Made by a program: the position numbers and the translations under genes. 35,461 nucleotides of DNA, from the IMG/VR virus record IMGVR_UViG_2778261527_000008; one strand, given 5' to 3'. Position 1 is the stretch's first letter; each line of letters opens with the position of its first letter. Below the pieces are notes generated by a model. The model was not told where the DNA came from, searched no databases, and saw only the letters and a list, made by a program, of their open reading frames with translations. The DNA is from a virus. Its lineage: Duplodnaviria > Heunggongvirae > Uroviricota > Caudoviricetes. Below are positions 1 to 34,023 of the stretch, piece after piece.

Positions 1-21
1 ATGCGAGGGACAGTCGAAATT

Positions 22-351
22 ATGCGTTATCCCGTCACTCTTACACCCGCGCCGGAAGGCGGTTATATGGTTTCTTTTGTGGATATCCCTGAAGCGTTGA
101 CGCAGGGCGAAACTGTCGCTGAAGCGATGGAAGCGGCAAAAGATGCTTTACTGACCGCATTTGATTTTTATTTTGAAGATAACGAGCTTATCCCGTTACC
201 TTCGCCATTAAATAGTCATGATCACTTTATTGAAGTACCTTTGAGCGTCGCCTCTAAAGTATTGCTGTTAAATGCTTTTTTACAGTCAGAAATCACTCAG
301 CAAGAGTTAGCCAGGCGAATTGGCAAACCTAAATGTTGTAAACCCCAATAA
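22..351 (+). CDS. hicB: HicB-family antitoxin, C-terminally divergent/truncated (frame open from window position 1; first plausible ATG at 22)
   Basis: Translation MRYPVTLTPAPEGGYMVSFVDIPEALTQGETVAEAMEAAKDALLTAF... matches my recollection of the enterobacterial HicB N-terminal domain; ORF ends ...RRIGKPKCCKPQ* at 349-351 where canonical HicB continues into a DNA-binding C-terminus; GC content drops after ~334. Confidence 0.55.
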   Translation: MRYPVTLTPAPEGGYMVSFVDIPEALTQGETVAEAMEAAKDALLTAFDFYFEDNELIPLPSPLNSHDHFIEVPLSVASKVLLLNAFLQSEITQQELARRIGKPKCCKPQ

Positions 352-574
352 CTAAAATTTTTGCAATAAAAAGCCCCATCTCAAGGACAAGGCTTAGAAA
401 TCAACTAATTAACATAGTTTCCAGATCAAAAGGGTTATAATGAAATCCATAAAAGGTGATCTGTTAGCTGGGTGCTGTATATCTAAAATGTTACTTAATT
501 AATATCGTTCTGGTGGTTAGCTTTCATCGCATCCCACCAGTCTTTTGTAATCTTCATGCTATTGAATTTCATAG

Positions 575-1345
575 TTATTTGCACCCGTACTGGTCAACAT
601 AGATTTTAGAATATCCTTGTTTTTGTACTTCTAAGCGAATCATATCTTGATTATCACGCCACACATAATATTTTTTGTTATCCACTTGACCTTCATATTG
701 CATAGCACCATTCTGATGCGTCACGGTTTTTGTTTTTGCTTTATGTGCGTTATAATTATCACGATACACAAATTCAATAATTTCCCCGTCTTTTACTTTA
801 AGTTTAAGTTCACCAGAGTTATAACGAGGATAACTAGGGTCTTTAACTACTTTTGTTTCTACCCCGTCGTGGATTTCCCATTCATAGTGAACATCGCATT
901 GTAATTCCATATCGCCTGTAAATCCTTTTGGTTTCTCTTCAACCTTCGGTTCTTCTACCACTTTTTCTTCCTGTTTCGGTTGTTCTTCTTCAACCTTCGC
1001 AGAAGTCTCTGAAACGCTCCCTGACGCGGTTTCTTCTTTAGATAATACATTCATCAAGTTTTGGATTTGAGCGTTGTATACAGCCTCCAGTGGCTGAATC
1101 TGCCCGATATTGATCATTGTATCACGAACAGTTTTATTCCAGTTGCGTTGCTCTTGTTTAAGCGACGGGTCAATCTTAACAGCCTTAACATATACTTCAT
1201 GAAGTTTAGAATCCAGTGCGGAGATTGACTCATTAGAACAAATAAACTTCTCTGATTTGGTAGTAGCTTTAGCGCAATCAAAGGACGCAGCATTAGCACC
1301 GAAAGCAGTAGCAGAAAGCACGATAGCAGCGATAATGTTTTTCAT
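575..1345 (-). CDS. secreted protein with DUF1311/LprI-like N-terminal domain, Glu/Lys-rich linker and C-terminal beta-rich domain (moron candidate)
   Basis: 256-aa ORF; signal peptide MKNIIAAIVLSATAFGANA; FDCAKATTKSEKFICSNESISALDSKLHEVY resembles the DUF1311 signature; RBS AAGAGG upstream of ATG. Confidence 0.45.
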   Translation of the reverse strand: MKNIIAAIVLSATAFGANAASFDCAKATTKSEKFICSNESISALDSKLHEVYVKAVKIDPSLKQEQRNWNKTVRDTMINIGQIQPLEAVYNAQIQNLMNVLSKEETASGSVSETSAKVEEEQPKQEEKVVEEPKVEEKPKGFTGDMELQCDVHYEWEIHDGVETKVVKDPSYPRYNSGELKLKVKDGEIIEFVYRDNYNAHKAKTKTVTHQNGAMQYEGQVDNKKYYVWRDNQDMIRLEVQKQGYSKIYVDQYGCK

Positions 1346-1703
1346 TTTATACCTCTTTTGGTATGGACTGACTTTTAGATGCTTACTTTATTGATTTTTG
1401 ATATTTTTTCAATTATTGGGATGAGATTTAGTAATTAAATTAAGAAATTAATGCTTGACAAATTAAAAAGGTACTGTTCCACGGATGAAATAAAGGGAGT
1501 TTTCGGCACCCCGGTATTTGATACGCGTGTGAGATTTTAAAACGTGATCAGTGCAGTCCTAGCGCGGTCGCTACGCGACTATTAACCCACTTCCTAGCCC
1601 TTACCATTACTGGATCTTTCCCTTCGTTAGAATGCGATTTAGGCGCTTAGATTGTGCGTAAAACCAATAAATAAAATTACGCAAATTTAATGGAGGATAA
1701 CCA

Positions 1704-2258
1704 ATGAAAGAAGAATTAACCCTTACAGAAATTTCCCGTTTATACGGCTATTCATTGAATGGTGGCGCTAAGCGATGGATAGAAAGGGGATTGCCATTTA
1801 ACACCAATACCCGCCGCGTGCCAGCCAAAGAAGGAACAGAATGGGTCTTGAAAAATATTATCAACCCGCTTAAACAAACTTCTATCAAAGAACAAATCGA
1901 TGTAGAGAAATTACGCCGTGAACGTGCTTTGGCAGATGCAGCCGAACGAGAGAACCAGGAAAAAATGAATCTCCTGATTCCTGTCGGTTATGTAGAACAG
2001 GAACTAGCGGAATATTGCGGGAAAGTGAAGCAGACTATTTTGCAGATCGCCACAATTGACGTTTTGGAAGTTCTCGAATCTGCCACCGACCAGAAAACAT
2101 TGAAGAACAAATTAAGGGAGATCATCGAGCGTCGTTTAAATGAAGTAGGGGACTTGTTCGAAAATGCTGATTTGGGAGAAGACGAGGAAGAAGAATTACC
2201 ATTAATGGATGAACCGGAAGAAGAACCAGAAGAAGACGATGAATTTGATGTGTCTTAA
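1704..2258 (+). CDS. terminase small subunit, Nu1-like (winged HTH N-terminus, acidic C-terminus)
   Basis: 184 aa; N-terminal LTLTEISRLYGYS...WIERGLPF HTH-like segment, EKLRRE segment and acidic tail reminiscent of lambda Nu1 architecture; RBS GGAGGA; same strand as terL. Confidence 0.5.
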   Translation: MKEELTLTEISRLYGYSLNGGAKRWIERGLPFNTNTRRVPAKEGTEWVLKNIINPLKQTSIKEQIDVEKLRRERALADAAERENQEKMNLLIPVGYVEQELAEYCGKVKQTILQIATIDVLEVLESATDQKTLKNKLREIIERRLNEVGDLFENADLGEDEEEELPLMDEPEEEPEEDDEFDVS

Positions 2259-2359
2259 AATTTCTATACTAAATACATATGTGAAAGATGTTGAGCTGGT
2301 CAACGTCTACGGGGGAGAACATCCCCCGCTTAACCTTTTTCTTATTTGAGGATTTACCT

Positions 2360-2461
2360 ATGGTTGAATTTTTGATTTATCTTACTGTAGGATTAACTAT
2401 CGTATATTCACTGGCACATATTGGCATTTCTGCTGTGTGTAACGCTTTCAAGTATCATTAA
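2360..2461 (+). CDS. small hydrophobic peptide (33 aa), single TM helix
   Basis: ATG at 2360 with GAGGA RBS 7 nt upstream; MVEFLIYLTVGLTIVYSLAHIGISAVCNAFKYH; below the ORF-track size cutoff. Confidence 0.25.
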   Translation: MVEFLIYLTVGLTIVYSLAHIGISAVCNAFKYH

Positions 2462-2514
2462 TTAAATCGATGAATTGAACTATAGATGATGGTCGTGTTC
2501 AAAGAGGATTATCT

Positions 2515-2688
2515 ATGGATCTTTTTGTCTACTTTGCTACTCTGCTGTTTTTGACTATCGTCGCTGGCATTAAATTGATTTTTATATCGCTGGTGGTGTT
2601 TTTCAAATTTCTAATCGGTACGCCTTACGGCTGGGTATGCTTCTTTTTGTTTATTCTTTTTAGTTGCTGTAAAAAGGATACTAAATAA
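2515..2688 (+). CDS. small membrane protein (57 aa, two predicted TM helices)
   Basis: ATG at 2515 with AGAGGA RBS; MDLFVYFATLLFLTIVAGIKLIFISLVVFFKFLIGTPYGWVCFFLFILFSCCKKDTK. Confidence 0.3.
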   Translation: MDLFVYFATLLFLTIVAGIKLIFISLVVFFKFLIGTPYGWVCFFLFILFSCCKKDTK

Positions 2689-2846
2689 TAGTGTAATCTG
2701 CCTTTTCTCCTTATGGTTATTAACAGGGGATCTTCTTTGAGGATTCCCGATTAAAAGCCATAAAACACACTCCAGTACAGTGTTTTCATAGTCAGTGATC
2801 TATACAACACAAAAACATAACAAGTATAGATTGAGTATTAATCCTC

Positions 2847-2872
2847 CCGCCCCTTCGGGGCGGTTATTTTTC
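2847..2872 (+). terminator. rho-independent terminator (UUCG tetraloop hairpin + U tract)
   Basis: ccgcccc-ttcg-ggggcgg followed by ttattttt. Confidence 0.6.
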
Positions 2873-2948
2873 TGGCTTTAAAGAATAATGTAGCATTATG
2901 TTCATTATAACCTCATCTTTGTTGTGCAAACCTAACCTAAACTTACTA

Positions 2949-2974
2949 GGGACTCTTCGGAGTCCCTTTTTTTT
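2949..2974 (+). terminator. rho-independent terminator (second, tandem)
   Basis: gggactc-ttcg-gagtccc followed by 8 T. Confidence 0.6.
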
Positions 2975-3215
2975 ATGCAACAATTCGAAGTGTAAGTTTC
3001 TTATGTTGTGTAGGTTTAGTTTCATTTCGCCACTCAGGGAATACATGATCCATCATAACCGCATTAGTCTCATCAATCAGCTTTAAGGACTTTCTCAACG
3101 CCTTATTATCAGCTTTAAGAGTTTTAATCTCTGATTCCATCGCTACCATTCTTTCTTTCATTTTGGTAATTTCTAACATCAGATTACCCAGAAATTCTTT
3201 GTTTTGATTCATCAT
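2973..3215 (-). CDS. hypothetical coiled-coil protein (80 aa)
   Basis: ORF with GAGGGG RBS; heptad-like KxL periodicity; no recognisable catalytic motif. Confidence 0.4.
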   Translation of the reverse strand: MMNQNKEFLGNLMLEITKMKERMVAMESEIKTLKADNKALRKSLKLIDETNAVMMDHVFPEWRNETKPTQHKKLTLRIVA

Positions 3216-3230
3216 AGATTCACCCCTCTA

Positions 3231-4232
3231 TTAAGCTGCGTATGCGTAGGCGCTGTAGTTGGTGTCGTAGATAGCGTCATGCAGTGCCATCTGTGCTTCG
3301 CGGATCTCGTCTTCGTTTACTTCAATCTCTTCTTGTTCTTCTTCGGTATCTTCCCAAGTGGTTTTGAATTTAGCCATAAAGTTATTGCGCAGGGATTCAA
3401 AGTTAGTAACAGGTGCGGATTTTTCTTCAACCGGAACTACTACCGGATCAGCTTCTTTCTGTTCTTCCTGTTCTACTTTTTCACCATTACCCCAGCGATA
3501 GTTAAGGAGTTCTTCCAGTTCTTCATCAATGGATTTTTCTTCAACTGCTTCAACTTCAACCGCTGCTACTTCGAAAGTGGTTTCCTGTGCTGCCAGTTCA
3601 GCTTTCAGAGATGCGTTTTCAGCTTCCAGTTCAGCAATGCGTGCTTTCAGTGCTTCAACTTCGGAAGATTCAACCACTGCAACTTCTTCTTTAACTTCTT
3701 CAACTACTACCGGAGCAACTTCTTTCTGTGCTTCTTTTTTGCAGAAGAAGGAGGAAGTAACCTGTAATGCGTGGTTGTAGAAGGAACCGCCTTTAGCGGT
3801 GTTAACAGTACCAGAAACATCCTTTACAGTGGATTCGGTAGCAACAGTACGGAAGCGTTTTGCGACTTCCTGGGTCTCTACGCCGTATTCGTTACGCTTG
3901 CTCTTGTGATGCATTACAGCACGGAAGCCGGAAGCAGTTTTAACAACAGCCAGATAGTAAGTTTCATCGGCTTTAACAGCACGAGCGAAGCAATAAACGG
4001 ATTCACCTTCTACCAGTGTAGGTTTAACGTGACGTTTGTCGAAACGGTTAGTGATCTGCCATTCAGCACCGTCTTTGATGCCAGCATTCTGACGCATTTC
4101 GGTCAGAGTCTTACCGGATACTACTTCAAAGGATTTGTCTTGTTTGCTTGCTTTACCTTCCATGACGGTAATGTTCAGTTTGCCGTTGGATTTAATAAAC
4201 AGGTTGAAGGTGATGCGCTTAGAATTTTTCAT
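3231..4232 (-). CDS. hypothetical protein: basic N-terminal domain, coiled coil, strongly acidic C-terminal tail
   Basis: 333-aa ORF with GGAG RBS; EVEALKARIAELEAENASLKAELAAQ coiled coil; Glu-rich tail; family not recognised. Confidence 0.5.
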   Translation of the reverse strand: MKNSKRITFNLFIKSNGKLNITVMEGKASKQDKSFEVVSGKTLTEMRQNAGIKDGAEWQITNRFDKRHVKPTLVEGESVYCFARAVKADETYYLAVVKTASGFRAVMHHKSKRNEYGVETQEVAKRFRTVATESTVKDVSGTVNTAKGGSFYNHALQVTSSFFCKKEAQKEVAPVVVEEVKEEVAVVESSEVEALKARIAELEAENASLKAELAAQETTFEVAAVEVEAVEEKSIDEELEELLNYRWGNGEKVEQEEQKEADPVVVPVEEKSAPVTNFESLRNNFMAKFKTTWEDTEEEQEEIEVNEDEIREAQMALHDAIYDTNYSAYAYAA

Positions 4233-4349
4233 TTATAAATACTCCTGAATGCTGTGTTAGTTTTAATTGTTCATATCAAAAGCCTCCTTGCGCCAACAGG
4301 GAGGCTTTTTTATTTTTAAAGCCATCATATAATTCTCAGTGAAAGGTTA

Positions 4350-4532
4350 TTACCAGACCTCGGCGGTAATCTTTACTTTAATGTCATACTTCTTTAAGAG
4401 TTTGTGGAAGGTTGATTGATCAATACCTTCACCTTTAAACCATTCACCCATCACTACATCAGGTGTCAGTTCAAAATAACGCTTTGCCATTTCTAAAACG
4501 ATTTCACGAGTGAACTTAACAGGTCGTGCCAT
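4350..4532 (-). CDS. small hypothetical protein (60 aa), possible DNA-binding regulator
   Basis: ATG preceded by AGGAGG RBS; first gene leftward of the noncoding control region. Confidence 0.4.
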   Translation of the reverse strand: MARPVKFTREIVLEMAKRYFELTPDVVMGEWFKGEGIDQSTFHKLLKKYDIKVKITAEVW

Positions 4533-4874
4533 CTTATATCCTCCTAAATCTGGAATAATGATTTCTTAAAAAAGAGCTTTTCGCTCTGAACAATTCTATT
4601 TATAAAATGTTTTTCGAAAAACCCTGTAAAACCACTGTATATCCGATCAGTGGGAGCACGAATTGCTAAAGAGAAGATTAATAATTAATCAATTCGTACA
4701 TTATTCAATCGAATAAGCACTGTATGTTTAGCCAGTTCTGTATGAATTAACAGTGAGTCAGGGGATTTTCAGAAGTGAACAATCATTTCATGCATGTATT
4801 TATACACGAAAAAATCTTGCGTATCATCAATATGGGGATTGTTTCGAAAATTTCAACCCCTACCAACGAGAAAA

Positions 4875-4903
4875 AGCATAAAATAATCCTTGACAGTTGT
4901 CAA
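4875..4903 (-). promoter_or_regulatory. candidate sigma70 promoter reading leftward, embedded in palindrome TTGACA-gt-TGTCAA
   Basis: on minus strand -35 TTGACA (4903..4898), 17-nt spacer, -10 TATGCT (4880..4875); the palindrome could also be an operator. Confidence 0.3.
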
Positions 4904-5100
4904 TACACTTGATCTAAGCGAGAGATGACTATCAAAATTTTTGTGTGAAAATGGCGGATAACGATTATCAACCTTTATAACCTATTATAGCACGGCGACC
5001 TTTTGATAATTCTTTTTAAATCATGCATTTACGGCGATTTTTGGTGATTTTCTGGTTAAATAATATACAAGAATTTTCTATCAAAATTTTTGATGAAAAA

Positions 5101-5220
5101 CCTACACTACAAACCTACGCTTTAAAGGGATTGGCCTACACTACACTAGCCAGTAAACCTACACTATAACACCCTCAAACCTACACTATGAAACCTACAC
5201 ACCTACACTAACCCTACACT
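5101..5220. repeat. iteron-like direct repeat array, core CCTACACT (6 perfect + 2 variant copies)
   Basis: copies at 5101, 5114(var), 5135, 5158, 5180, 5194(var), 5202, 5213; three successive spacings of 21-23 bp; often preceded by AAA. Confidence 0.6.
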
Positions 5221-5408
5221 TCAATCTCATAAGTGTATGATATTGAAAGACATTTCACCCCACAGACCATAGAATATAAAATTCGAACTAACGTTCTCCT
5301 TTTTGCTCGTTTTCTCTCACTACGTTCAAGAAAGATCTCGCAAAAAGAATACGGCGTAGCCGTGCGCGAAGCGCCCATCAACACCTTCTAAGACCTGCAA
5401 GCAGGATT

Positions 5409-5561
5409 CGAAAGGGATTGGATAGTTCGCTTCGCTCACGTTCACGCCTACGGCGTTCACTCGCTTTTGAAAGGATTTTCTTAGAAAGGGATTTAATACT
5501 AGTTACTAACTGATTCTAGTAAACGAACGAAGTGAGTAACAATCACTTTCTAGAAAGGTAT
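5409..5561. repeat. second direct-repeat family GAAAGG(G)ATT (4 copies)
   Basis: copies at 5409, 5468, 5483, 5552 inside a GC-richer structured segment. Confidence 0.4.
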
Positions 5562-5799
5562 TGGTTATCCCTTCGGGATTGCAACCTTCGGTTGCTAAAT
5601 TGCTTCCTGATTATTATTTCTCCAAAAGAAAGATTCTTATATTCTAAAGATACTTCTTCGTTTTGATGATGATTTAATCAAACCATGAAGGAGGGCTTTA
5701 GCCCGACTGAATACAATCACCTTTCATAATAACAAGAATTTTCTCTTTATAAATAATAGTGAACTTACTTGATTCACTTTCTTTTAGAGGATTTCCACT

Positions 5800-6267
5800 A
5801 TGAACCATAAAATGACTACCACTACTCCTTTTATCCTTCTGGGTCTGGATTCTGATAGCTTCCACAATGACAAGTTAATGAAGATGTTCCGTGAACGTGG
5901 TTATAACATCCTTTTCAACTCTGATGAATCCCATTTCTCTAGTGCATGGTATGCGTTTTACCGTAATAAGAAGCCGACCATTGTAGTTAACTGCTTCACC
6001 GATGAAGAACGCTTAAAGTACCAGGATCTACCAGCAATTATTGTCCGTGATGATCTGCCGTTTCAAGTCCGTTCCGGTGACATTGATCTGGGTAGCTTCG
6101 TTACTGTCTATGAACTGGATGAAGCAATGTTTAACTACGGCAAAGAAACCGCTCAGGAAGCCCCAGAAGAAGATGAACAAGACGAAGATGACGACGACTA
6201 CGCACCAATCTGTTTTTCTTCTCAGAATGGCTTCTACGGTTACGACGAAGGCTTAGATATGCTGTAA
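5800..6267 (+). CDS. hypothetical protein with strongly acidic C-terminal tail (EEDEQDEDDDDY)
   Basis: 155-aa ORF, AGAGGA RBS, E. coli-like codon usage; first rightward gene after the control region. Confidence 0.5.
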   Translation: MNHKMTTTTPFILLGLDSDSFHNDKLMKMFRERGYNILFNSDESHFSSAWYAFYRNKKPTIVVNCFTDEERLKYQDLPAIIVRDDLPFQVRSGDIDLGSFVTVYELDEAMFNYGKETAQEAPEEDEQDEDDDDYAPICFSSQNGFYGYDEGLDML

Positions 6268-6302
6268 GTTAGGTCAACCCTTTGGCGTCTTGTCAAGGGG
6301 TA

Positions 6303-6331
6303 TTGACAAAAATTTCTGACTTTTTTATGAT
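6303..6331 (+). promoter_or_regulatory. candidate sigma70 promoter
   Basis: -35 TTGACA 6303-6308, 17-nt spacer, -10 TATGAT 6326-6331; upstream inverted TGTCAA at 6291-6296. Confidence 0.35.
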
Positions 6332-6389
6332 TGTCGCACTTGACAACTTTAAACCTATTTGACCTAGATTTGTAAATGGGGTGTTAATT

Positions 6390-6536
6390 ATGAACACTAC
6401 TAAGAAAATTGATGGACGTAAAACCCCGAACCGCAAACCGTGGACCCCAAACCTGAATTTCTCAATGGTTGACTTCCATGAACGCCAGCGTCGCATTCAA
6501 GAAGAAATTGATCGCGCGATTGCTGAATCTAAATGA
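6390..6536 (+). CDS. small basic protein (48 aa)
   Basis: ATG at 6390 with GGGG RBS; MNTTKKIDGRKTPNRKPWTPNLNF...; below ORF-track cutoff. Confidence 0.35.
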   Translation: MNTTKKIDGRKTPNRKPWTPNLNFSMVDFHERQRRIQEEIDRAIAESK

Positions 6537-6633
6537 GATAAAAACTTCTTATAAATAAAATTGTTCCGGTGATGCTGCCGGAACTAGGAGGATCAATATC
6601 ATTATCGCAAAACCGTTTAAGGGGAATTTAATT

Positions 6634-7440
6634 ATGAATACTGTTACTGCTATGAATACTACTAAAACCGCTTCCGTGTCTCTGGTTGTTGATAACACCA
6701 AACCGCTGACCATGTCTTCTCGTCAGATCGCTGAATTTACCGGAAAGAAACACTTTCACGTAAAACGCGACATTCGCGAAATGCTGATTACCTTAGAATT
6801 AGATGAATCCAAATTTGGATGCATCTTTTTTGATCAATATGGACGCGAGCAAACAGAATATCACTTGAATGAAGAACTGACTCTGACTCTTGTCACTGGT
6901 TACAATATCCAGATGCGAAACGCGGTTATTCAGGAATGGAAGCGACTGAAAGAAGAAAATGAAAAACTTCGCTCTACTCCGGTTAACCCGTATGCAGACT
7001 TTGAAGAAACCGACTGGATCGAACTGGCGTTAAAGAAAACTCGCGAGAACAAGCAACTGATTACTCTACATCATCGCAAATCCGTAGATAGCCATTCAAT
7101 GACGCGTTTGTTAGGTGCTAAAAAGGGCGCTACGAAGGTTAAAGAAGCACTGACGGCCTTACGTACTGCCGGATACATTGAGCGCGTCTATGATGAAAAT
7201 AACAAGCCGTGTGGGTATGTTGCTAATGATTCCGCGATACCGTTTTGCAGCATGAACGCTCACTATCAACTTTCTTTCACTGTTGATGTGCTTCCGGTGC
7301 TGGTTGAATTGGGTGTTCTTGAAGAAGAACAAAAAGCAGCTTTGACACTGCCTAAACCGAATAACACGATCATGATTCAGAATAAAGCGACTATCATGAT
7401 TCGTCAGAATGTTGGATCGCTAGAACACTTCGGACTGTAA
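6634..7440 (+). CDS. phage regulatory protein, Rha-family antirepressor-like
   Basis: 268 aa; N-terminal SSRQIAEFTGKKHFHVKRDIREML typical of Rha/ORF6N DNA-binding domain; AAGGGG RBS. Confidence 0.55.
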   Translation: MNTVTAMNTTKTASVSLVVDNTKPLTMSSRQIAEFTGKKHFHVKRDIREMLITLELDESKFGCIFFDQYGREQTEYHLNEELTLTLVTGYNIQMRNAVIQEWKRLKEENEKLRSTPVNPYADFEETDWIELALKKTRENKQLITLHHRKSVDSHSMTRLLGAKKGATKVKEALTALRTAGYIERVYDENNKPCGYVANDSAIPFCSMNAHYQLSFTVDVLPVLVELGVLEEEQKAALTLPKPNNTIMIQNKATIMIRQNVGSLEHFGL

Positions 7441-7448
7441 TAATTTTT

Positions 7449-7473
7449 GCCCCTGAATTTCAGGGGCTTTTTT
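7449..7473 (+). terminator. rho-independent terminator
   Basis: gcccctgaa-t-ttcaggggc perfect inverted repeat followed by tttttt. Confidence 0.6.
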
Positions 7474-7522
7474 GTATCTGTAGGTATAAAAAAAGCCAAC
7501 CCCGAAGGATTGGCCTAGAGAA

Positions 7523-7753
7523 TCAAATTCCTGTTGCTTCTACCATTTCACCATCAACCTGAACAAAGAATTTCAAATCAACTTTATGAAGGGATTTGTA
7601 TAGCTGGGCTATGGATAAGCCATGCTCATTTAATACCCGCTCTTTGTTCTCTTTACCTTTCGGTGCTTGATAGTACGCTTTTACAATCGCTGCCAGTTGT
7701 TCACGATTAAAACGGGCAGGGCGACCGCGAGTAGCTTTAGTAGTCATAGTCAT
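7523..7753 (-). CDS. small putative DNA-binding protein with AT-hook-like RGRP motif (76 aa from internal ATG)
   Basis: ORF track starts at a GTG; the ATG at 7753..7751 has a GGAG RBS; MTMTTKATRGRPARF... Confidence 0.4.
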   Translation of the reverse strand: MTMTTKATRGRPARFNREQLAAIVKAYYQAPKGKENKERVLNEHGLSIAQLYKSLHKVDLKFFVQVDGEMVEATGI

Positions 7754-7782
7754 TTTCTCCAAATTAAAGTGAATGTTCACCT

Positions 7783-8388
7783 TTATTTAGAGGACTTACA
7801 TTTTATCGGAAAAAGTTCTCCATCGTCAACCGACATAAAGAACTCTGCCTTAATCCCGTACTTCTTCAACCGTGAATAATATGTACCCCGACTAATATCA
7901 ACCTTGCGCAGCACTTCGAAGAACTCTTTAGGATTCCTGTAATAGTGGCTATATCGCACGTTAGCGAGTTCTACAAACAATTCCCTTGTATCACCATAGC
8001 CTTTCTTGAAAGCCACGTTACGATAGCGTGTAATGGCATGATTCAATCTCTTCTGTTTAAGCACTTCCCTGATCGGCTTCCACTGCAACCGATAGATAGG
8101 ACCGTCATCAATGCGATAATAACGCTTGATATCAAAATCAAACCAATCTCGGACTCTCCGAAACTCTGTATGTGATGTTCTATGCTTCTTAAAGAAGTTG
8201 TGAACGTCTCTATAGCCATTATCACGGTAAAATTCTATTAAAATCTCTTTCGCTTCCTCACGGCTAAACCCAGATGTTGTGTAATCGGTCTTTAAGTGCT
8301 TATGTTTTACTGGCAAACGATATTCATGATCGGTACAACAAGACAAGGCTAATTCTACTTCATCTCTTTGTTGCTGATTAATTAGCAT
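7783..8388 (-). CDS. hypothetical basic protein with C-terminal HTH-like segment
   Basis: 201-aa ORF; Arg/Lys/Tyr-rich; ISRGTYYSRLKKYGI resembles an HTH recognition helix. Confidence 0.45.
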   Translation of the reverse strand: MLINQQQRDEVELALSCCTDHEYRLPVKHKHLKTDYTTSGFSREEAKEILIEFYRDNGYRDVHNFFKKHRTSHTEFRRVRDWFDFDIKRYYRIDDGPIYRLQWKPIREVLKQKRLNHAITRYRNVAFKKGYGDTRELFVELANVRYSHYYRNPKEFFEVLRKVDISRGTYYSRLKKYGIKAEFFMSVDDGELFPIKCKSSK

Positions 8389-8474
8389 ACACCCTCCTTA
8401 AATCTTAATACCGTATTTATCAAAATATAAACAATTTAATAAATACCTTCATATTTCGTAATGAGGGTAATTAC

Positions 8475-10382
8475 ATGAAACTGATTTCTAATAAGGCAAA
8501 ATTAAAAAAGATTCTCAGAAATGCAGCCAAATATATTACGCCACCGCCTAAACTCCTTCCATCGGAATGGTGCGAAGCGAATCTAACGCTAGTCGATGGT
8601 CCTCGTGCTGGGGATAAAGTTAAATTGCTGTCATTTCAGAAAGGCATGATTGATGCTCCTTTCCTTGAGAAGAAAAAGAAGTACGTTTTTTGTACGAGTG
8701 CGCAGATCGGAAAGACGACCATCATGTCAGGGATCATGTTTAACCAGATGGCAAACGATCCGTGTAATATCATTATCGGGCAAAGTACCGCTAAAGAAGT
8801 GGCTATGTACTTGAATACTAAGATCCGTCCTTCTATTGAAGCATGTCCGGCATTACAGGAAGTGGTAACAGATAAGAATGATCGTAATGCGGTAAACAAC
8901 AATAACCAGATTCAGCTAAAAACAAACCATTTCCTTTACATGGTTTCTTTGACCAGTCCTTCAAGTTTGCGCGGGCGTACTGCCAAGTTAGGGATTGTAG
9001 ACGAATGCGACGCAGCAACAATCACCGAAGAAGGTTGCCCGGTGGCACTAACTGCAAACCGTTTAACTACCTTTGGTGATGAAGCTCGATTGATTGTTTC
9101 TAGTACCCCGACCAATAAGCTGGGAATCATTAACCAGCAATGGTTATCAAGTGATATGCGTATGTTTTTTGTTCCGTGTCCTCATTGCGGGGAACACCAG
9201 GTGATCGAGTGGGAAAACGTTCAATTTGAATGGCGTAACATTGATGGTAAGAACTTACCCGATCCTGATACCGCTCGTTATATTTGCCCCCACTGTAAGA
9301 ACGCATGGACAGAAGGGGAACGAATCAGGGCAGTAGCGCAAGGCGAGTGGAGAGCAACCCGTGAAAGTGAAGTAGCAGGATTCTGGATCAGTCGTCTGTA
9401 TTCACCTTTCAGCACGATCCGCGCTTGTGTGGTTGATTTTAGTCATGCGTGGCAATCCTTTGATTTACAATCCTTTTTTAACACCGTGTTAGGCAAGGTA
9501 TACGACGATCAGGACACGGCAGTAGAAGCAAATGAACTGGAACAACTCAAAACAGATGTTTCTATCGAGAATATCCCTGATGACGTGATTTTCTTGTGTG
9601 CGGGTACTGACCAGCAATTAGATCGCGCAGAAACTACGATCATGGGCGTGGCAAAGGATAAGATTTATATTCTGGATCACCGCAGCTTTTACGATCATAA
9701 CTGTGAACGATATGAATCACCTGTATGGGATAGATTAATCAACTTCCATAAAACCAAATTTACTACTGTATCGGGTGATCGTGTTCCTATGCTCGCCAGC
9801 TTCCTTGATACATCGAACGGTCGATTCACTCAAGCTGGATACCGTATTTGCGGCAAGTGGAAGAACTTACACGCTATCAAAGGTAGTTCTGCTGGTAACG
9901 CTCCGATCATTCCGGTTAAACCTACCCGCACAGGTGGTCATGAATTGCTTATGCTGGGCGTTAACGTTGGGAAATCCGCTGTTCGTGAAATGCTGGTTAG
10001 AAACCTGAAAGATAATCCTCATATTGGCTTAGAAATATCAGAAACCATTCCTGATGATTATCTCGATCAGCTTTTGAGTGAATCCATCAAGCGTACTACT
10101 ACTGGCGTGCGTTGGGTGAAAAATCCAGGTAGTACCCGAAACGAGGCTCTCGACTGTCTGGTTTATAGCTATGCTGCTTCTCGCTACGTTCTTTCAAAAA
10201 TGTCATGGGATAAACTCATTGCAATGAAAGACAGCTTAAACCGTGTTGTCGAAGAATCCGTAGAAGCTCCTAAATCGCAATCTGACGAGCAAATCGAAGA
10301 AAATAAGCCAATCACACGACCACAACGTAAAAACATCGCCAGACGCCCAAATAGAGGCCGTAGCTGGGTAACATCGTTCTAA
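8475..10382 (+). CDS. terminase large subunit, lambda GpA family
   Basis: 635 aa, size and motifs (zinc-finger-like CPHCG...CPHC segment) consistent with GpA-type terminases; GAGGG RBS. Confidence 0.8.
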
Positions 10383-10454
10383 TAACTCGCCGTCCTTCGG
10401 GGCGGCTTACTCCTAAATATTGTTAATCCAATAACAATTAAATAAGGGGTAATT

Positions 10455-10949
10455 ATGAGTTTAGAACTAATTCCCTTAGTAATTCGTAAAGGTGAAAAAA
10501 TCACGCTGGCGAATGAAGAGGGTGTAACAATTCAGGTAGGAAATAGTAAAGGTATCATTTATCAGGTTGATGATACTCCGGCTAATCATGAGATTAAAAC
10601 CTTAGATTTTGCCGAAGGTAAATATACCATCGTAACCACTTTGGAAGAAGAACTGGTATCAATGCAGGAATTAACTGTTTTACCAGTATTCGCCAAACAA
10701 TCCAAAAAAGAATATCTGCGGGAAACTATCGCCTTAATCGAGCAAGTTATTTTCGCCCGTTTATCTGGGGACGAAGCCGCATTATCTCAAATGACAGTGA
10801 AAGGGAATACTTTCGCCTATGAGTCATTAGGTGTTCTCCAGCAATTAAAGACTGATTATGAACGTCAGTTATCAAAATTAATTCAAGCCGAACGACGTAA
10901 ACAGGGAATTAGCCCGATTAAAAATATTAAAGTACGTCTTACGCGATAA
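10455..10949 (+). CDS. gpW-like head-tail joining protein with extra N-terminal domain
   Basis: position between terL and portal as for lambda W; C-terminal half shows gpW-like spacing of hydrophobic/Gly residues; 164 aa vs 68 aa for lambda gpW. Confidence 0.35.
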   Translation: MSLELIPLVIRKGEKITLANEEGVTIQVGNSKGIIYQVDDTPANHEIKTLDFAEGKYTIVTTLEEELVSMQELTVLPVFAKQSKKEYLRETIALIEQVIFARLSGDEAALSQMTVKGNTFAYESLGVLQQLKTDYERQLSKLIQAERRKQGISPIKNIKVRLTR

Positions 10950-10959
10950 GGGGTAAATC

Positions 10960-12471
10960 ATGTTTAATCTTTTTCGACGCAAAAAGGCGGTAGAAACTCC
11001 AGTTAAAACTAATCACCGCCAACAACAACCAAAAATTTTCATCGACAAACAAGTAGAAAAATTTCAGAAAGATTTGTCTAAGCGTTCTTTGGGCTTAGTC
11101 GGTGATCGAATTGATGGGCAGCTTCAACAAGATACTATCACCGGAACGTTCAATAAGGCTCTCAAATCGAACGGTAAGCGCCTTTATGATCAGGGTCGTA
11201 CTCTGGCCTTAAACACTTCCGTAGGCAGTCGATACACGCAATACATCACCGATATGGTGGTAGGTACTGGCCTAGATCCGAAGCCGTCAATCGTTAAATC
11301 AAATGGCAAACTTGATAGCGCACTGAATAAGCAGATCGAGAATGCTTTCTGGAAGTGGGCGCAGAATGCTAAACGCTTCTCTCGTAACGGTCGCTTTAAC
11401 TTCCGTGAATTGCTGGTAATGGCTGAACGTGAGCGCGTTATGGGTGGTGAGTGTTTCATCGTTTTAACTAAAGAAAACAATGAGTTAAATGTTTCTATCC
11501 TGTCTGCTGATAAGTGCGACTGGACTCTCAACCGTGAAGTGAGCAAAGAACGTGCGATATATCAAGGTGTGGAGTATGCCGTAGAAACGATGAAGCCCGT
11601 GGCATACTGGTTTCGTAAAGTCAACCTACTGACTCAGACCTACACTGGTGATAACTATCGCGTCGATGCTTCGCAAGTATGCCATTATTATCAACCGCTT
11701 ACCGCCGAATCCCTGCGTGGTGTGACTGACTTCCTGCCAGTGATTAAGGATATCGCACATCAAGATGCATTCCGCGAAACTGCGATCATCCAGAAACGCA
11801 TTGCAGCTAGCTCTATGGGCTTTATCGAACGTCCGAAAGATTCTGGTGACGATTTTGATACTGGTGAAGAGGATGAACAATATCAAGCGCCGGAAGTAGT
11901 ACAGGACTTTGCACCGGGTACTATTCAGGAATTGCCGGAAGGGGCAACGATTAAGTCAATTCAGAGCGCCCAAAGTGGCGATGACTTTAACAGCTTCAAT
12001 GATGCGATGTTTACTAGCGTATCAATGGGCTTAGGCGTGTTTAAACAGGGCTTAACTGGTGATACCAGCCAGATCAACTACAGCGCAGCCCGCTACGGCG
12101 AATTGCTTCAACGCACACGAGTTAAAGCACTGCAAAACAAATTAATTGAAACAGTGGTATTGCCAATTTTTGAAGCATATCTACGCCATTATTCCGCGCG
12201 TGGTATTGTTCCGATTCGTATTACTGCAATTCCGCATATTATCGACAACACTACTATTATTCGTCCGCGTTTTGAATCCGTCGATCCTATTAAAGACGTA
12301 AACGCTGATATTGCTTTAATTGATAAAGGACTTAAATCACGTACTGCCGTTATATTAGAACGTGGTGATGATCCTGAAAAAGTATTCTCAGAGATTCAAG
12401 CCGAAAAGAGCGCACTAAATATTATCGTTGATGGTGAGGGTGAAGAAAAAAATTCCCCAGCCGATCCCTAA
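10960..12471 (+). CDS. portal protein (lambda gpB-like)
   Basis: 503 aa, immediately downstream of terL, acidic C-terminus; synteny. Confidence 0.75.
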   Translation: MFNLFRRKKAVETPVKTNHRQQQPKIFIDKQVEKFQKDLSKRSLGLVGDRIDGQLQQDTITGTFNKALKSNGKRLYDQGRTLALNTSVGSRYTQYITDMVVGTGLDPKPSIVKSNGKLDSALNKQIENAFWKWAQNAKRFSRNGRFNFRELLVMAERERVMGGECFIVLTKENNELNVSILSADKCDWTLNREVSKERAIYQGVEYAVETMKPVAYWFRKVNLLTQTYTGDNYRVDASQVCHYYQPLTAESLRGVTDFLPVIKDIAHQDAFRETAIIQKRIAASSMGFIERPKDSGDDFDTGEEDEQYQAPEVVQDFAPGTIQELPEGATIKSIQSAQSGDDFNSFNDAMFTSVSMGLGVFKQGLTGDTSQINYSAARYGELLQRTRVKALQNKLIETVVLPIFEAYLRHYSARGIVPIRITAIPHIIDNTTIIRPRFESVDPIKDVNADIALIDKGLKSRTAVILERGDDPEKVFSEIQAEKSALNIIVDGEGEEKNSPADP

Positions 12472-12516
12472 TAACCAACGGGGGCGCAATGCCCCCAATT
12501 AATTAAAGGTGATTAA

Positions 12517-14523
12517 ATGCTTAAATTTCGCCGCGATCTTAACGGTTACGGTGGAGTTATTAATGAAGGGCATAACGATCAATACGAATTTGAAATTGCT
12601 TTCTCAAGTACACAGCCTTATCAGCGCCAATTTTGGGATGAGCAAAATCAAGAAATGGTGGTATTAGATGAAATTCTGGTACATACACCGGAAGCGGTTG
12701 ATCTGTCTCGTCTGAATAATAACGCTCCGTTGCTGTTCAATCACAATTTCGATAATCACATTGGTGTAGTTTGTAACGCTCGAATCGATGCGGATAACGT
12801 AGGTCGTGCTCTGGTTAAGTTCTCCAAGCATGGGACTTTGGCTAATGATATTCGTAATAAAGTCATTGAAGGTACGATGGAAAAAATTTCTGTCGGCTAT
12901 GACATTAAAGAATATCACATCGATTATGCCAAAGGACAATTGATTGTTACTAAGTGGGCACCCTATGAACTCTCATTTGTCACCGTTCCCGCAGACGATA
13001 CGGTCGGTTTAAATCGCTCTCTAAATACTATCACAGTTAATTTGGAGGCTAAACGCGATATGACTAAAGAACAAATTGAAGAAATCAAAGAAGAACAAGA
13101 ATCCGCTCAGGTTGAAGAAACTCCGGTAGAAGAAAATAAAGAATCGGAAGTAGAAGAAACTCAAGAGCGCCAAGTTGAAGAGAATAAAGAAGATGAAAAT
13201 CTCGAAGACGGAAAAGACGCTGAACATCCTGAAAGTGTTGATGATGATAGTTCAACTGTTCGGGAAACAGAAGAAGTAAAAGAAGAACGTGAAGCCGCTC
13301 CGGTTGAAGAAGAAAAAATCGAAGAAGTGGCTGAACGTTCCGAAGAAGACGAATTAGAAATTCGCGAAATTGCACGCGAACTAAATATTGATGACGAAGA
13401 ATTGAAACGCGCATTGGCAATTAAAGATATGACGCCGGAAGCATTCCGCACTAAGGCACTAAATAACATTACCAATGCTCAACGTATTAACGAACAACAA
13501 ATTAAGGACTCTAAAATGGAAAAAACTTTTGACCTGAACAACGTAATTCGCTCTCTGGTAGATGGTGAAGCTCTGGGTGCTAACGAAGCCGAGTTTTCTG
13601 CAATGGCTGCTACTACAACTATGCAGCGTGGTCGTGCCGCTCGTGGTGGCTCTGTATTCGTTCCGGCTGCTGCTATGCGTGCTGCTGCTGATGGCAACAC
13701 CAAAGCTAATCTGGTTGCTATCACTGACGAAAAACTGATGACTGAATCCTACATCGAAATGCTGATGCCTCAGAGTGTTTTAGGCCGCCTCGGGGTGACT
13801 GTTTATAGTGGCTTGACTTCTCCGACCGCTATTCCAAAAATGACTAAATCCAGCGTTGACGCTTTCGGATTCGTTGACGAAAATGGCGCTGCCCCCGAGT
13901 CACATGCGGAATTTTCGAACGTGAAACTGTCTCCGAAAACTTTTGCTGGTGGCAACCCGATCAGCCGTCAGTCGCTGAAAACCGTTCCGGGCATCGCTAC
14001 CCTGATCACCGATCACATTAACAAATCTGTTCGGATCAAACTGGAACAACTGATTCTGTCTGATAAAGAAAATGCTCGTGGTCCGGCTGGTCTGGTTAAG
14101 CAACTGGTAGACGCTAGCCGCGTTACCAAGAAAGCTGCTTTCTCTTATAAAGACTTCCTGAAAGAAATTGCAGCACTGACTGACGCTGGCGTTCCTGCTC
14201 AGGCGATCAAGTTTGCGATGAGCGGTGCAACTGCTGCTGAACTGGAATCTACCCTGAAAGATAACGGCGTTTCCGGTTATATCATCGAAAACGGCAAACT
14301 GGCTGGTTACGAAGTAGTTACTTCTGGCGTTATTCCGGCAGACCACATCGTTCTGGGTGACTTCTCCGGTATTACTATCGGTGAGTGGGGCGGTCTGGAA
14401 CTGGATATGGATCTAACTACATACCGTGATCGTGGTGCGGTAGTGCCTCGTATCTTTGTAGATTTGGACTACGTTGTAGCACAGCCGGAAGCTCTGAAAG
14501 TTCTTCACATCTCCGCTGAATGA
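12517..14523 (+). CDS. prohead protease (HK97 gp4/S78-like) - acidic scaffold-like linker - major capsid protein (HK97 fold) fusion
   Basis: N-terminal ~170 aa with protease-like SVGY/ELSFVTVPA motifs; ~110-aa Glu-rich linker; C-terminal ~340 aa capsid-like; single uninterrupted ORF. Confidence 0.7.
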   Translation: MLKFRRDLNGYGGVINEGHNDQYEFEIAFSSTQPYQRQFWDEQNQEMVVLDEILVHTPEAVDLSRLNNNAPLLFNHNFDNHIGVVCNARIDADNVGRALVKFSKHGTLANDIRNKVIEGTMEKISVGYDIKEYHIDYAKGQLIVTKWAPYELSFVTVPADDTVGLNRSLNTITVNLEAKRDMTKEQIEEIKEEQESAQVEETPVEENKESEVEETQERQVEENKEDENLEDGKDAEHPESVDDDSSTVRETEEVKEEREAAPVEEEKIEEVAERSEEDELEIREIARELNIDDEELKRALAIKDMTPEAFRTKALNNITNAQRINEQQIKDSKMEKTFDLNNVIRSLVDGEALGANEAEFSAMAATTTMQRGRAARGGSVFVPAAAMRAAADGNTKANLVAITDEKLMTESYIEMLMPQSVLGRLGVTVYSGLTSPTAIPKMTKSSVDAFGFVDENGAAPESHAEFSNVKLSPKTFAGGNPISRQSLKTVPGIATLITDHINKSVRIKLEQLILSDKENARGPAGLVKQLVDASRVTKKAAFSYKDFLKEIAALTDAGVPAQAIKFAMSGATAAELESTLKDNGVSGYIIENGKLAGYEVVTSGVIPADHIVLGDFSGITIGEWGGLELDMDLTTYRDRGAVVPRIFVDLDYVVAQPEALKVLHISAE

Positions 14524-14714: not shown

Positions 14715-15005
14715 ATGTTCAAATTATCAGAATCACAATTAAATCGAATGTTTAAAAGTGCTCCTGTATTTTCGGTGGAAGGTGGTAAATCAATTCGTGC
14801 TTATCATGAAATTACTACTACCGACGAATCGGGGGTAATGACAGAAACAGAATTTCTATTCTGTCGTGAGGGAGACTTAAAGCAAGGTGATATTGTCACA
14901 GTAGAAAACCAGCGTTTCAAAGTTCAATACGTTAAGCGCAATGGTGACAATACTTGTGATTGCTTTATCACTTTAGCAGGGGGTACACATGCTCGCTACC
15001 GTTAA
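14715..15005 (+). CDS. head-tail adaptor / head completion protein (candidate)
   Basis: 96-aa ORF directly after capsid gene, AGGGGG RBS; synteny only. Confidence 0.4.
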   Translation: MFKLSESQLNRMFKSAPVFSVEGGKSIRAYHEITTTDESGVMTETEFLFCREGDLKQGDIVTVENQRFKVQYVKRNGDNTCDCFITLAGGTHARYR

Positions 15006-15411
15006 TAATATGCCGAGACTGAAAATCAAACGCGCCTTGCAAGATATTATCGAACAAGATTTAGGTCTGGCTTTAAACGTAGAACAAACTCAGCAAGGCT
15101 TTAGTGATGACGTGGTTTGTTGGATTACTGGCATGAATGAGACTTACACAAGGGTCCGTGGCGGTAATGCAATGCAAGCTGAATGCGTTATCGAAATGCA
15201 GTTATATTCTCAGATTCATGAAACGAAAATTCATGAGGGTATTTGCCAGATAATCCAGATTCAGCCAGATAACCCACGATTTAAAGATTTGGGCTTCTCT
15301 ATTTCAGATATCACTCCAGTAGCTTCTAATACCGATTATGACGATGATTCTAGTGATGGGGGTATCGTTGGGACACTTAGCCTTAAATTTTCTTATCTAG
15401 CGCGTTTTTAA
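14989..15411 (+). CDS. head-tail joining or tail completion protein (candidate)
   Basis: 140-aa ORF overlapping previous stop by 17 nt; synteny only. Confidence 0.35.
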   Translation: MLATVNNMPRLKIKRALQDIIEQDLGLALNVEQTQQGFSDDVVCWITGMNETYTRVRGGNAMQAECVIEMQLYSQIHETKIHEGICQIIQIQPDNPRFKDLGFSISDITPVASNTDYDDDSSDGGIVGTLSLKFSYLARF

Positions 15412-31392: not shown

Positions 31393-31746
31393 ATGTTAAG
31401 CAAACATTTTTCTCGCAAGGAATTTAAATGTAAATGCGGAAAATGTGATTATGATACAATCGACGCTGAATTACTGGTAATTCTTGAGGATGTACGAGAG
31501 CACTTCGGTAAACCAGTGATTATTAACAGTGGCAACCGTTGCCCGACTCATAACAAGAATGTAGGCGGGGCAGCCAATAGCTATCACGTTCGAGGCCGTG
31601 CGGCTGACATTGTTATCAAGGGTGTCTCACCTGATATTGTTCATGCTTATCTTGATGGGAAATATCCTACTCAATACGGCTTAGGAAAATATAAAACATT
31701 TACGCATATCGATTCCAGATCAAAAAAATCACGGTGGAATGGATAA
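31393..31746 (+). CDS. endolysin, zinc peptidase M15 family (cell-wall peptidase)
   Basis: 117 aa; INSGNRCPTHNKNVGGAANSYHVRGRAADIV and later His/Asp fit the M15 zinc-binding signature. Confidence 0.65.
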   Translation: MLSKHFSRKEFKCKCGKCDYDTIDAELLVILEDVREHFGKPVIINSGNRCPTHNKNVGGAANSYHVRGRAADIVIKGVSPDIVHAYLDGKYPTQYGLGKYKTFTHIDSRSKKSRWNG

Positions 31747-32018: not shown

Positions 32019-32276
32019 CTATGATTTATTTTCTTGTTCTATGAAAATCTTTCTCACCTCATCAGAATAAATGTCTAGTGATTCCTCATAACATTTTCTG
32101 TATTCATCGTAATTACTGGTGGTCTTTTGACATAGCAATTTCAATGTCTTATGTGCTCCATCAATGAAAGCATCTTCTCTATAGGTTAGCGGTCTACGCA
32201 TTTCTTGGTCTACGGTTGCCAATGCCAAGCAAGAATTCATAGATAAAATCAAACCTAAAATCTTAATCATCTTCAT
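32019..32276 (-). CDS. small secreted protein
   Basis: signal-peptide-like N-terminus MKMIKILGLILSMNSCLALA; 4 nt downstream of recombinase stop. Confidence 0.35.
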   Translation of the reverse strand: MKMIKILGLILSMNSCLALATVDQEMRRPLTYREDAFIDGAHKTLKLLCQKTTSNYDEYRKCYEESLDIYSDEVRKIFIEQENKS

Positions 32277-32280
32277 TAGC

Positions 32281-33960: not shown

Positions 33961-34023
33961 ACCATTTCCAAACAAAAACGCCCCTACCGCGTATTATAAC
34001 GATAGGGGCCAGGTGATTAAAGA

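Follow-up and report, generated by a model that had tools for sequence, protein, structure and literature searches.

In phage λ the cos site, the small terminase gene Nu1 and the large terminase gene A are contiguous, and the early genes lie on the other arm of the genome. The DNA analyzed here (the window: 35,461 nucleotides of a tailed phage, IMG/VR record IMGVR_UViG_2778261527_000008) raises the question of why the corresponding genes stand so far apart. The gene for the small subunit, terS (1704-2258, + strand), and that for the large subunit, terL (8475-10382, + strand), are separated by 6216 bp (2259-8474) that hold about ten called genes, distributed over the two strands. A preliminary description of the window correctly recognized both terminase genes and the 6.2 kb between them, as matches of terS to PHROG 57 and of terL to the GpA family confirm. 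It counted at least 11 genes on the two strands, slightly more than are called, and took the stretch for an accessory island inserted in the packaging module and filled mostly with moron or anti-defence cargo. The comparisons below suggest instead that positions 2259-8474 constitute a conserved early module of a temperate phage family and not inserted cargo, a reading to which we assign a probability of about 0.7. The separation of terS and terL appears to be the normal genome plan of this lineage rather than the outcome of an insertion.

Relatives were collected from IMG/VR (24 loci via terL and 23 via terS) and from 5426 complete E. coli genomes, 63 of which (about 1%) contain a match to the stretch; the open reading frames (ORFs) of 27 distinct E. 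coli versions were clustered. The terS-terL gap measures 5.7-7.6 kb in every contig that holds both genes, and the gene order within it is invariant in 27/27 of the E. coli versions. terS is followed by one or more small membrane genes, a leftward group formed by p80 (where present), a gene of the p333 family and p60, and an intergenic region of 1.16-1.40 kb. Beyond this region lie the rightward genes p155, p51 or a gene for a protein of 110 amino acids (aa), and Rha, followed by the leftward genes p85 and p201 and then terL. The core genes, namely p60, the p333 family, p155, Rha, p85 and p201, are present throughout, or almost throughout, the 27 relatives. A profile of the helix-turn-helix (HTH)-like domain of p60, p85 and p201 additionally has members in Salmonella, Proteus, Providencia and Edwardsiella. 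The Salmonella, Proteus and Edwardsiella contigs show the same plan, except that Edwardsiella is without p201 and p85 and has Rha directly upstream of terL. Not one relative with terS next to terL was encountered among the E. coli, Salmonella, Proteus and Edwardsiella loci examined. As gene order is kept in the 27 E. coli relatives and in other genera, with only three to four small slots that vary, the accessory-island reading is contradicted. The preliminary description had itself named conserved core genes at this position in relatives as evidence against an island, and such genes are what the relatives contain.

Within this fixed order the proteins diverge to different degrees. Among E. coli relatives the identity ranges are 57-99% for p155, 35-90% for Rha and 54-100% for p60, which occurs as three alleles. 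p201 is the most conserved protein of the stretch, with 87-98% identity in the full-length E. coli relatives (two relatives have truncated ORFs) and with orthologues of 201-202 aa in Proteus and Salmonella.

A second line of evidence comes from the remainder of the element. Essentially the whole window is a single E. coli prophage, complete at ~35.2 kb, which interrupts hicB and lies in the host between hicA-hicB' and ydcR. The 14-bp attL core TTGGCAAACCTAAA (320-333) lies inside host hicB, with the prophage beginning immediately to its right. The same 14-mer is repeated at the far junction, where it adjoins a hicB 3' remnant just past the right end (L056, 2992-3108). In strain CE0007a (NZ_CP119011.1), which has a 99.8% identical copy of the stretch, two RefSeq hicB pseudogene halves flank the element. 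The left part of the prophage comprises attL, a leftward gene for an LprI-like lipoprotein, a conserved non-coding block, terS and the terS-terL stretch. terL is followed by genes for a gpW-like protein, a portal, a protease-capsid fusion, tail proteins and an M15 endolysin (31393-31746). At the right end are the leftward gene for a large serine recombinase (564 aa, 32281-33975), which inserts the prophage in hicB, three small leftward genes and attR. The ORFs tested between 8475 and 31936 are structural, lysis-related or unassigned, none of them looking regulatory or replicative, and the small genes beside the integrase are secreted or unassigned. No second early or regulatory region was found inside the att-bounded element outside the terS-terL stretch, which is therefore the only candidate for early, immunity and replication functions.

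The stretch shows more mosaicism than the head genes, with core genes and order nevertheless retained. At least 80% of it is covered in 14/63 genomes, against 37/54 for the same length of DNA from the head and tail genes; mosaicism is usual in the early regions of temperate phages. The slot after terS is occupied in the window by two small hydrophobic peptides without family match (33 aa, 2360-2461, and 57 aa, 2515-2688, both + strand), in nine distinct relatives by a 94-aa membrane protein, and in one relative by an IS4-like transposase. Further variable slots are p80, the position held by either p51 or the 110-aa gene, and the position after Rha, where extra genes for proteins of 156 or 214 aa may occur. 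Cargo-like behaviour appears to be confined to these slots. The supposed wealth of moron or anti-defence genes did not materialize: PADLOC defence models gave 0 matches to 10 proteins of the stretch, and its G+C content (0.34-0.45) is not distinct from that of the remaining phage (0.37-0.50). The typical moron positions are instead those of the signal-peptide genes on the att and integrase side, namely the LprI-like lipoprotein (575-1345), a 90-aa protein (32019-32291) and a 139-aa protein (34024-34443), all on the - strand. Relatives either lack the lipoprotein gene or have a 59%-identical allele in its place.

Two loci illustrate what can be acquired here or nearby. In E. coli HeN100 (NZ_CP044443.1, 2388969-2402014) the stretch has grown to 13 kb and contains mcr-1.1 together with copies of ISApl1 and ISKpn26; here a colistin-resistance transposon sits in the early region of this prophage. 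In the Edwardsiella relative (L059, 13413-15044) a defence-like gene for a 543-aa reverse-transcriptase/TIR protein lies beside terS at the prophage edge.

What the module might do is indicated by a protein and a repeat array that vary together. In the window, an AT-rich segment (5053-5093, 82% A+T in a region of 60-75% A+T overall) lies directly left of eight direct iterons of the form (A)CCTACAC(TA), the two together spanning 5053-5224 on the + strand. The iterons start at 5101, 5114, 5135, 5158, 5180, 5194, 5202 and 5213, i.e. at spacings of 13, 21, 23, 22, 14, 8 and 11 bp. In a motif scan of the window 8 occurrences were counted against 1.5 expected, the cluster holding 5 of the 8 in that scan. 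Iteron arrays are present in every lineage, with 8 copies in the window and 9-16 in each relative examined, and their phasing is ~11 or 22 bp. Besides the repeat seen in the window (type A), E. coli relatives have other repeats in the same place, TTTTGCCCCTGAA in type B and TCCCCG(CG) in type C, and Edwardsiella has TTCAAATGCTAC at 21 bp.

The gene next to p60 encodes the p333 family (313-377 aa), represented in the window by p333 (333 aa, 3231-4232, - strand), which we regard as the candidate iteron-binding protein. In 27/27 E. coli loci (13 of type A, 12 of type B and 2 of type C) the repeat type matches the type of the N-terminal ~170 residues of this protein, and no alignment is possible between the N-domains of different types. 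Beyond E. coli, Salmonella L061 has an A-like N-domain and the repeat CCTACACT, while Salmonella L060 and Proteus L058 have a common N-domain together with a common repeat, CTAGGGAT, arranged in tandem at exactly 11 bp. The remainder of the protein is common to all alleles: a leucine zipper at about residues 190-240 is followed by an acidic linker and the C-terminal tail. Although p60 sits between the p333 gene and the iterons, its alleles I and II each accompany type A in some loci and type B in others. Since a gene located between the partners reassorts freely, the pairing of N-domain and iterons is not explained by physical linkage alone. It would seem that recombination has repeatedly cut between the partners and that only matched combinations of p333 and iterons survive. 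Five type B loci retain 1-3 CCTACAC copies at the left edge of the array, and these residual type A repeats are apparently traces of specificity-module exchange. p80, an 80-aa coiled-coil protein with weak coiled-coil matches only (2973-3215, - strand), occurs among E. coli relatives in 13/13 type A loci and in none of types B and C.

Two other roles for the iterons were considered. That they are binding sites for terS was rejected, as terS alleles are independent of iteron type. A ParR-like partition centromere is unlikely: the phage integrates, and it encodes no ParA, ParM or TubZ partner.

The p333 family is confined to a very narrow set of sequences: an exhaustive search with the N-domain gave 6 matches in 1.84 billion representative proteins, and the matches listed for the full-length protein (n = 120) are all near-identical proteins of Escherichia or Shigella. 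Its C-terminus is YAYAA in the window (gene end at 3231-3260), and among the window and five relatives (L031 and L058-L061) the family ends in YAYAA, FAYAA, DFAA, NVA, MFA or LVA. In one relative the YA repeat is expanded to AYAYAYAYAYAA. Nonpolar C-termini ending in alanine resemble ssrA-like degrons and those of tail-specific proteases, and this likeness suggests that the p333-family protein might be unstable.

Given an early module, we consider the chances to be even that p333 and the iterons form an initiator/origin pair. The module would then combine regulation with, most likely, the replication origin and initiator of a temperate siphophage that integrates in hicB. The N-domain of p333 would bind the iterons and the leucine zipper would oligomerize the protein, which might then open the adjacent AT-rich DNA in the manner of λ O-like or plasmid Rep-like initiators. 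The conserved C-terminal part of p333 would recruit host replication proteins. p60, p85 and p201, together with Rha, would constitute the switch for lysis or lysogeny and for late genes. More tentative, and in our estimate short of even odds, is the broader proposal that a family of temperate siphophages spanning several genera, and lacking a close representative among isolates, runs lysogeny, early functions and replication from a 6-kb module of orphan proteins. It would comprise a new class of iteron-binding initiator acting without a phage helicase or loader, and a new HTH-like domain of ~60 aa used four times as a switch.

The alternative that survives best accepts the same early module and differs on p333, which would be a Mu c-like lysogeny repressor with the iterons as its operators, some other protein of the stretch serving replication. 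Here the N-terminal domain would bind DNA, the leucine zipper would oligomerize the protein, the tail would be protease-sensitive, and the complex would shut off the rightward early operon. The position of the array, between divergent operons and just ahead of weak promoter-like matches that point rightward (5247-5282), is well suited to such a role. So are the allele-specific pairing, as in heteroimmune phages, and the degron-like C-termini of most alleles (AA, VA or FA), and the module offers no other repressor candidate of known fold. On the other hand, 8-16 repeats in the same orientation, phased at 11 or 22 bp and with an AT-rich neighbor, are more typical of origins, and a repressor role for p333 leaves the phage without an initiator candidate. 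Parts for a switch are moreover already on offer in p60, an independently reassorting specificity gene, and in a family-wide set of operator-like GAAAGGnATT sites (see below). We therefore regard the repressor/operator pair as a possibility, clearly less probable than the initiator/origin pair, with the remainder falling to other roles.

Several observations weigh against the early module as read here, with its initiator and switch. The pairing of protein and repeat specificity fits a repressor and its operators equally. p333 alleles tested against Pfam, NCBIfam, PHROG and PDB sequences gave no match and hence no homology to initiators. Neither a DnaA box (TTATCCACA, at most one mismatch) nor an IHF consensus was matched near the iterons, and a helicase, primase or helicase loader is encoded nowhere in the element. 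With the exception of Rha, the proteins of the stretch appear to be without detectable homologue of known function. Structure prediction for p155 gave a generic α/β fold only, and the single-sequence AlphaFold2 model of p201 (pLDDT 41) was unusable. The position of cos, finally, is given by inference only.

The region around the iterons is rich in further signals. The preliminary description had noted a noncoding control region of ~1.2 kb, and this is borne out by 1267 non-coding bp (4533-5799) between the divergent operons, the length remaining within 1.16-1.40 kb in 31/31 distinct E. coli versions. A search of this region against Rfam gave nothing at the gathering threshold or at E up to 1. 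The perfect palindrome TTGACAGTTGTCAA (4892-4905) contains back-to-back -35-like hexamers and is, by pattern match only, a candidate for divergent promoters; its minus-strand promoter match is 10/12. A terminator-like hairpin (4573-4587, - strand) lies just before p60, ~300 nt downstream of the palindrome on the minus strand, an arrangement that points to a short leader transcript, or to attenuation, ahead of p60.

To the right of the iterons is the leader of the rightward operon (5360-5799, + strand), 440 bp with 85-93% identity across E. coli relatives, above that of the flanking genes. It contains a cluster of GAAAGGnATT half-sites at 5410, 5469, 5484 and 5553, the palindrome AATCACTTTCTAGAAAGGTATT (5541-5562) and two UUCG hairpins (5573-5601), ATCCC-TTCG-GGGAT and GCAACC-TTCG-GGTTGC. 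Its predicted fold is more stable than that of shuffled sequences (z = -5.6, both strands). The second hairpin reads GACGCTC-AGG-GAGCGTC in relative L015 and CAGTC-TTCG-GACTG in Proteus, the stem being kept and the sequence changed. This anecdotal covariation hints at a structured RNA without an Rfam family. Proteus, where p201 and p85 occur, has GAAAGGnATT and TTCTAGAA sites, and Edwardsiella, which lacks both proteins, has neither kind of site; this hints weakly that p201 or p85 might bind these sites of the leader.

The HTH-like domain of ~60 residues is present once in p60 (60 aa, 4350-4532, - strand), once in p85 (7523-7780, - strand; probably 74 aa, 7523-7747) and as two tandem copies in p201 (201 aa, 7783-8388, - strand), the three being paralogous. 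It has the pattern (R)GRPxxFxxE...GIsxxxFYKxLKKxdIK and a β-hairpin-like end, the p60 copy reading RPxKFTxE...GIxxSTFxKLLKKYxIK. By eye the domain seems to resemble homeodomain-like or Hin-type helix-turn-helices, and a profile of it gave no significant match in Pfam or PDB. Hence, of the "small DNA-binding proteins" proposed earlier, the HTH-like sequence pattern is there and a match to a family model is not. The Rha gene recognized in the same description is well supported: the protein (268 aa, 6634-7440, + strand) matches Pfam Phage_pRha (PF09669) with E = 8.9e-13 and 49.1 bits against a cut-off of 29.9, and PHROG anti-repressor families with 6e-19. The Rha domain is N-terminal, and the C-terminal 160 aa match nothing assigned. 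p155 (155 aa, 5800-6267, + strand), the first rightward gene, combines an α/β N-domain with an acidic linker and, towards the C-terminus, the invariant peptide DDYAPICFSS..GFYGYDEGLDML. It is followed by p51 (6381-6536, + strand; called as 48 aa). In searches of the proteins of the stretch against Pfam, PHROGs, NCBIfam, PADLOC and PDB sequences only Rha was matched, terS being the sole further case. That the content cannot be assigned by homology, as initially noted, is thus correct, and apart from Rha these proteins appear to have no detectable homologue outside this phage family.

The layout of genes and terminators is compatible with three transcription units: a leftward p60-p333-p80, a rightward p155-p51-Rha, and a leftward p201-p85 back-to-back with the late operon that begins at terL. 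The terminators listed in the preliminary description are supported, with 14 terminator-like hairpins observed against 5.7 +/- 2.3 in shuffled sequences. Five of these are strong: two that end the terS-side and the leftward units (2847-2863 and 2948-2967), one with a 13-bp stem between p60 and p333 that might be an attenuator or bidirectional terminator (4278-4309), and a face-to-face pair closing the rightward and the p201-p85 operons (7449-7467 and 7493-7516). Its "at least two promoters" fared less well. Promoter-like matches (20 against 18.2 expected) are in no excess over chance, and the promoters are inferred from the divergent gene layout alone; this includes the 86-bp control region proposed from the sequence between p201 and terL (8389-8474).

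The reading of the stretch as lying between two terminase genes depends on the identity of terS. The 184-aa protein, which has an acidic C-terminal tail, matches PHROG 57 "terminase small subunit" over residues 2-169, near full length, with E = 1.5e-11, and we consider it very probably a Nu1-like small terminase. Its companion is beyond dispute a GpA-type large subunit (635 aa; GpA_ATPase 1.9e-55, 188.7 bits; GpA_nuclease 2.7e-44, 152 bits, both far over the cut-offs; PHROG 15, 8e-133). It is improbable that the 184-aa protein is instead a Nu1-like HTH regulator or excision factor, with the true terS elsewhere, e.g. as one of the HTH-like proteins by terL, in which case the terminase genes would be split in appearance only. 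Such a view could draw on the failure of the window protein to match Pfam and on the sub-threshold matches of Phage_Nu1 to its Edwardsiella and Proteus orthologues (55% and 53% identical; E = 1.2e-5 and 4e-3; up to 25.5 bits against a cut-off of 30). It could also draw on transcription separate from that of terL and on identical terS alleles that accompany terL types only 57-59% identical to each other. The near full-length PHROG match speaks against it, as does the position of the gene beside a conserved non-coding block in all relatives; p201 and p85, for their part, are on the opposite strand and missing in Edwardsiella. That block (1444-1703, 260 bp) is 87-97% identical in 22 distinct relatives despite a differing left-hand gene, and is a candidate for cos and/or the terS promoter. 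In λ cos adjoins Nu1, and by analogy we place the putative cos here, immediately upstream of terS.

In the window and in all relatives 6.2 kb or a comparable gap, with opposing genes and terminators, intervenes, and adjacency or co-transcription of terS and terL was seen in none of them. terS alleles 96-97% identical to that of the window are paired with terL of 92-97% or of just 57-59% identity (L023, L026-L028, L031 and others). The two terminase subunits thus appear to reassort independently of each other. Searches of isolated phages gave no match, either by megablast with 1400-10500 or by tblastn with terS. A scan of species-representative genomes with a terL alignment was likewise empty. 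The closest terL of an isolated phage, at 43% identity, is that of Escherichia phage DCP80 (PQ671644.1), other isolated phages reaching ~30%. This 141-kb record is labelled Straboviridae, and its positions 1-12611 open with a GpA terminase, a gpW-like protein, a λ-type portal and a protease-capsid block; either a chimeric assembly or an unusual mosaic could account for this. The ORFs upstream of its terL are, judged by eye, not terS-like.

Still less probable is a defective or helper-dependent state of the prophage, in which replication and immunity genes have been lost and the stretch retains only leftover regulators. Recognizable replication or CI/Cro genes are indeed missing, and p155 or p201 ORFs are truncated in some relatives, but a compact plan with intact ORFs, diversifying alleles and differing integration sites extends over four genera, and independent decay would not repeat one architecture. 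Least probable of all is the original proposal of host-interaction and anti-defence cargo inside a contiguous terS-terL module, for although the proteins resist assignment, the mosaicism of the stretch exceeds that of the head genes, the membrane peptides after terS differ among relatives and one strain is burdened with insertion sequences and mcr-1 here, terS adjoins terL in no relative, the core genes are kept across four genera, this is the only room left for early functions, and neither base composition nor PADLOC sets the stretch apart.

Two smaller observations concern the rest of the window. The ORF at 1-351 (116 aa) is HicB cut after GKPK: it is minus the C-terminal ~30 residues, which form the DNA-binding part of HicB, and has acquired the ending CCKPQ, hicA being intact. 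ARAGORN reports a 91-nt tRNA-Glu(ttc) at 15176-15266 (- strand) within an opposite-strand ORF of 140 aa (14989-15411), and Rfam reports none; the call is probably a false positive.

These prophages of enterobacteria belong to an undescribed and uncharacterized phage family with almost entirely orphan early proteins. If confirmed, the early module would represent a temperate-phage plan in which terS and terL flank the early region and reassort independently. The association of the same terS allele with terL types ~58% identical bears on the compatibility of terminase subunits, and the rule "terS next to terL" used by prophage annotators would be affected. The pairing of iterons and N-domains, with at least five specificity types, would provide a ready-made protein-DNA recognition system without known homologues. 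Since roughly 1% of complete E. coli genomes harbour the family, which disrupts the gene for the HicB antitoxin and has an mcr-1 transposon in one strain, its induction is of practical interest. The terS-terL stretch is not, however, a hotspot of defence or anti-defence genes in the sense first proposed.

No described phage with an early region between terS and terL was found in the literature searched or in INPHARED, and the literature searched likewise offered nothing relevant on phages that integrate in hicB or on terminase genes that are split apart. Comparison with known systems is nevertheless instructive. The Rha family (PF09669) is represented by the gene 6634-7440, whose product has the N-terminal domain of the family and an unassigned C-terminal part of 160 aa; it may serve here as an anti-repressor or an early regulator. 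A precedent for the separation of the terminase genes is found in P2 and 186, where the small subunit M and the large subunit P are not adjacent; in P2, however, it is the capsid genes of the late region that lie between them, not an early region, and the terminase is of another family. The packaging module is closer to that of λ, with its GpA-type terL, λ-type portal and Nu1-like terS preceded by a conserved non-coding block, differing in the 6.2 kb between terS and terL and in their separate transcription units. Elsewhere the resemblance to λ ends: there is no P-like loader, no similarity to O, no homologue of CI, Cro, N or Q, and the integrase is a serine and not a tyrosine recombinase.

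The Mu repressor c with its operators O1-O3 is comparable in having many repeats between divergent operons, an N-terminal DNA-binding domain (putative in p333), a leucine-zipper-like region and a degron-like tail. No sequence similarity to the Mu repressor was detected, the phage is not transposable, and the repeats here are more numerous and more regularly phased. Lambdoid O proteins have a variable N-domain and a conserved remainder, a layout that p333 resembles. In the lambdoid O/ori system, as with p333 and the iterons, an exchangeable N-terminal specificity domain is matched to direct repeats by AT-rich DNA, and relatives exchange such modules in mosaic fashion. It differs in that the iterons here are outside the p333 gene, ~870 bp upstream and beyond another gene. 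Iteron plasmids of the pSC101, R6K and P1 RepA type, finally, differ in that p333 has no Rep_3/RepA-like signal, the array has no DnaA box, the protein contains a long coiled coil and an acidic region, and replication is here a prediction. Like these plasmids, the module combines 8-16 phased direct repeats by an AT-rich stretch with a single dedicated binding protein, for which p333 is the candidate, and its specificity types behave like incompatibility groups.

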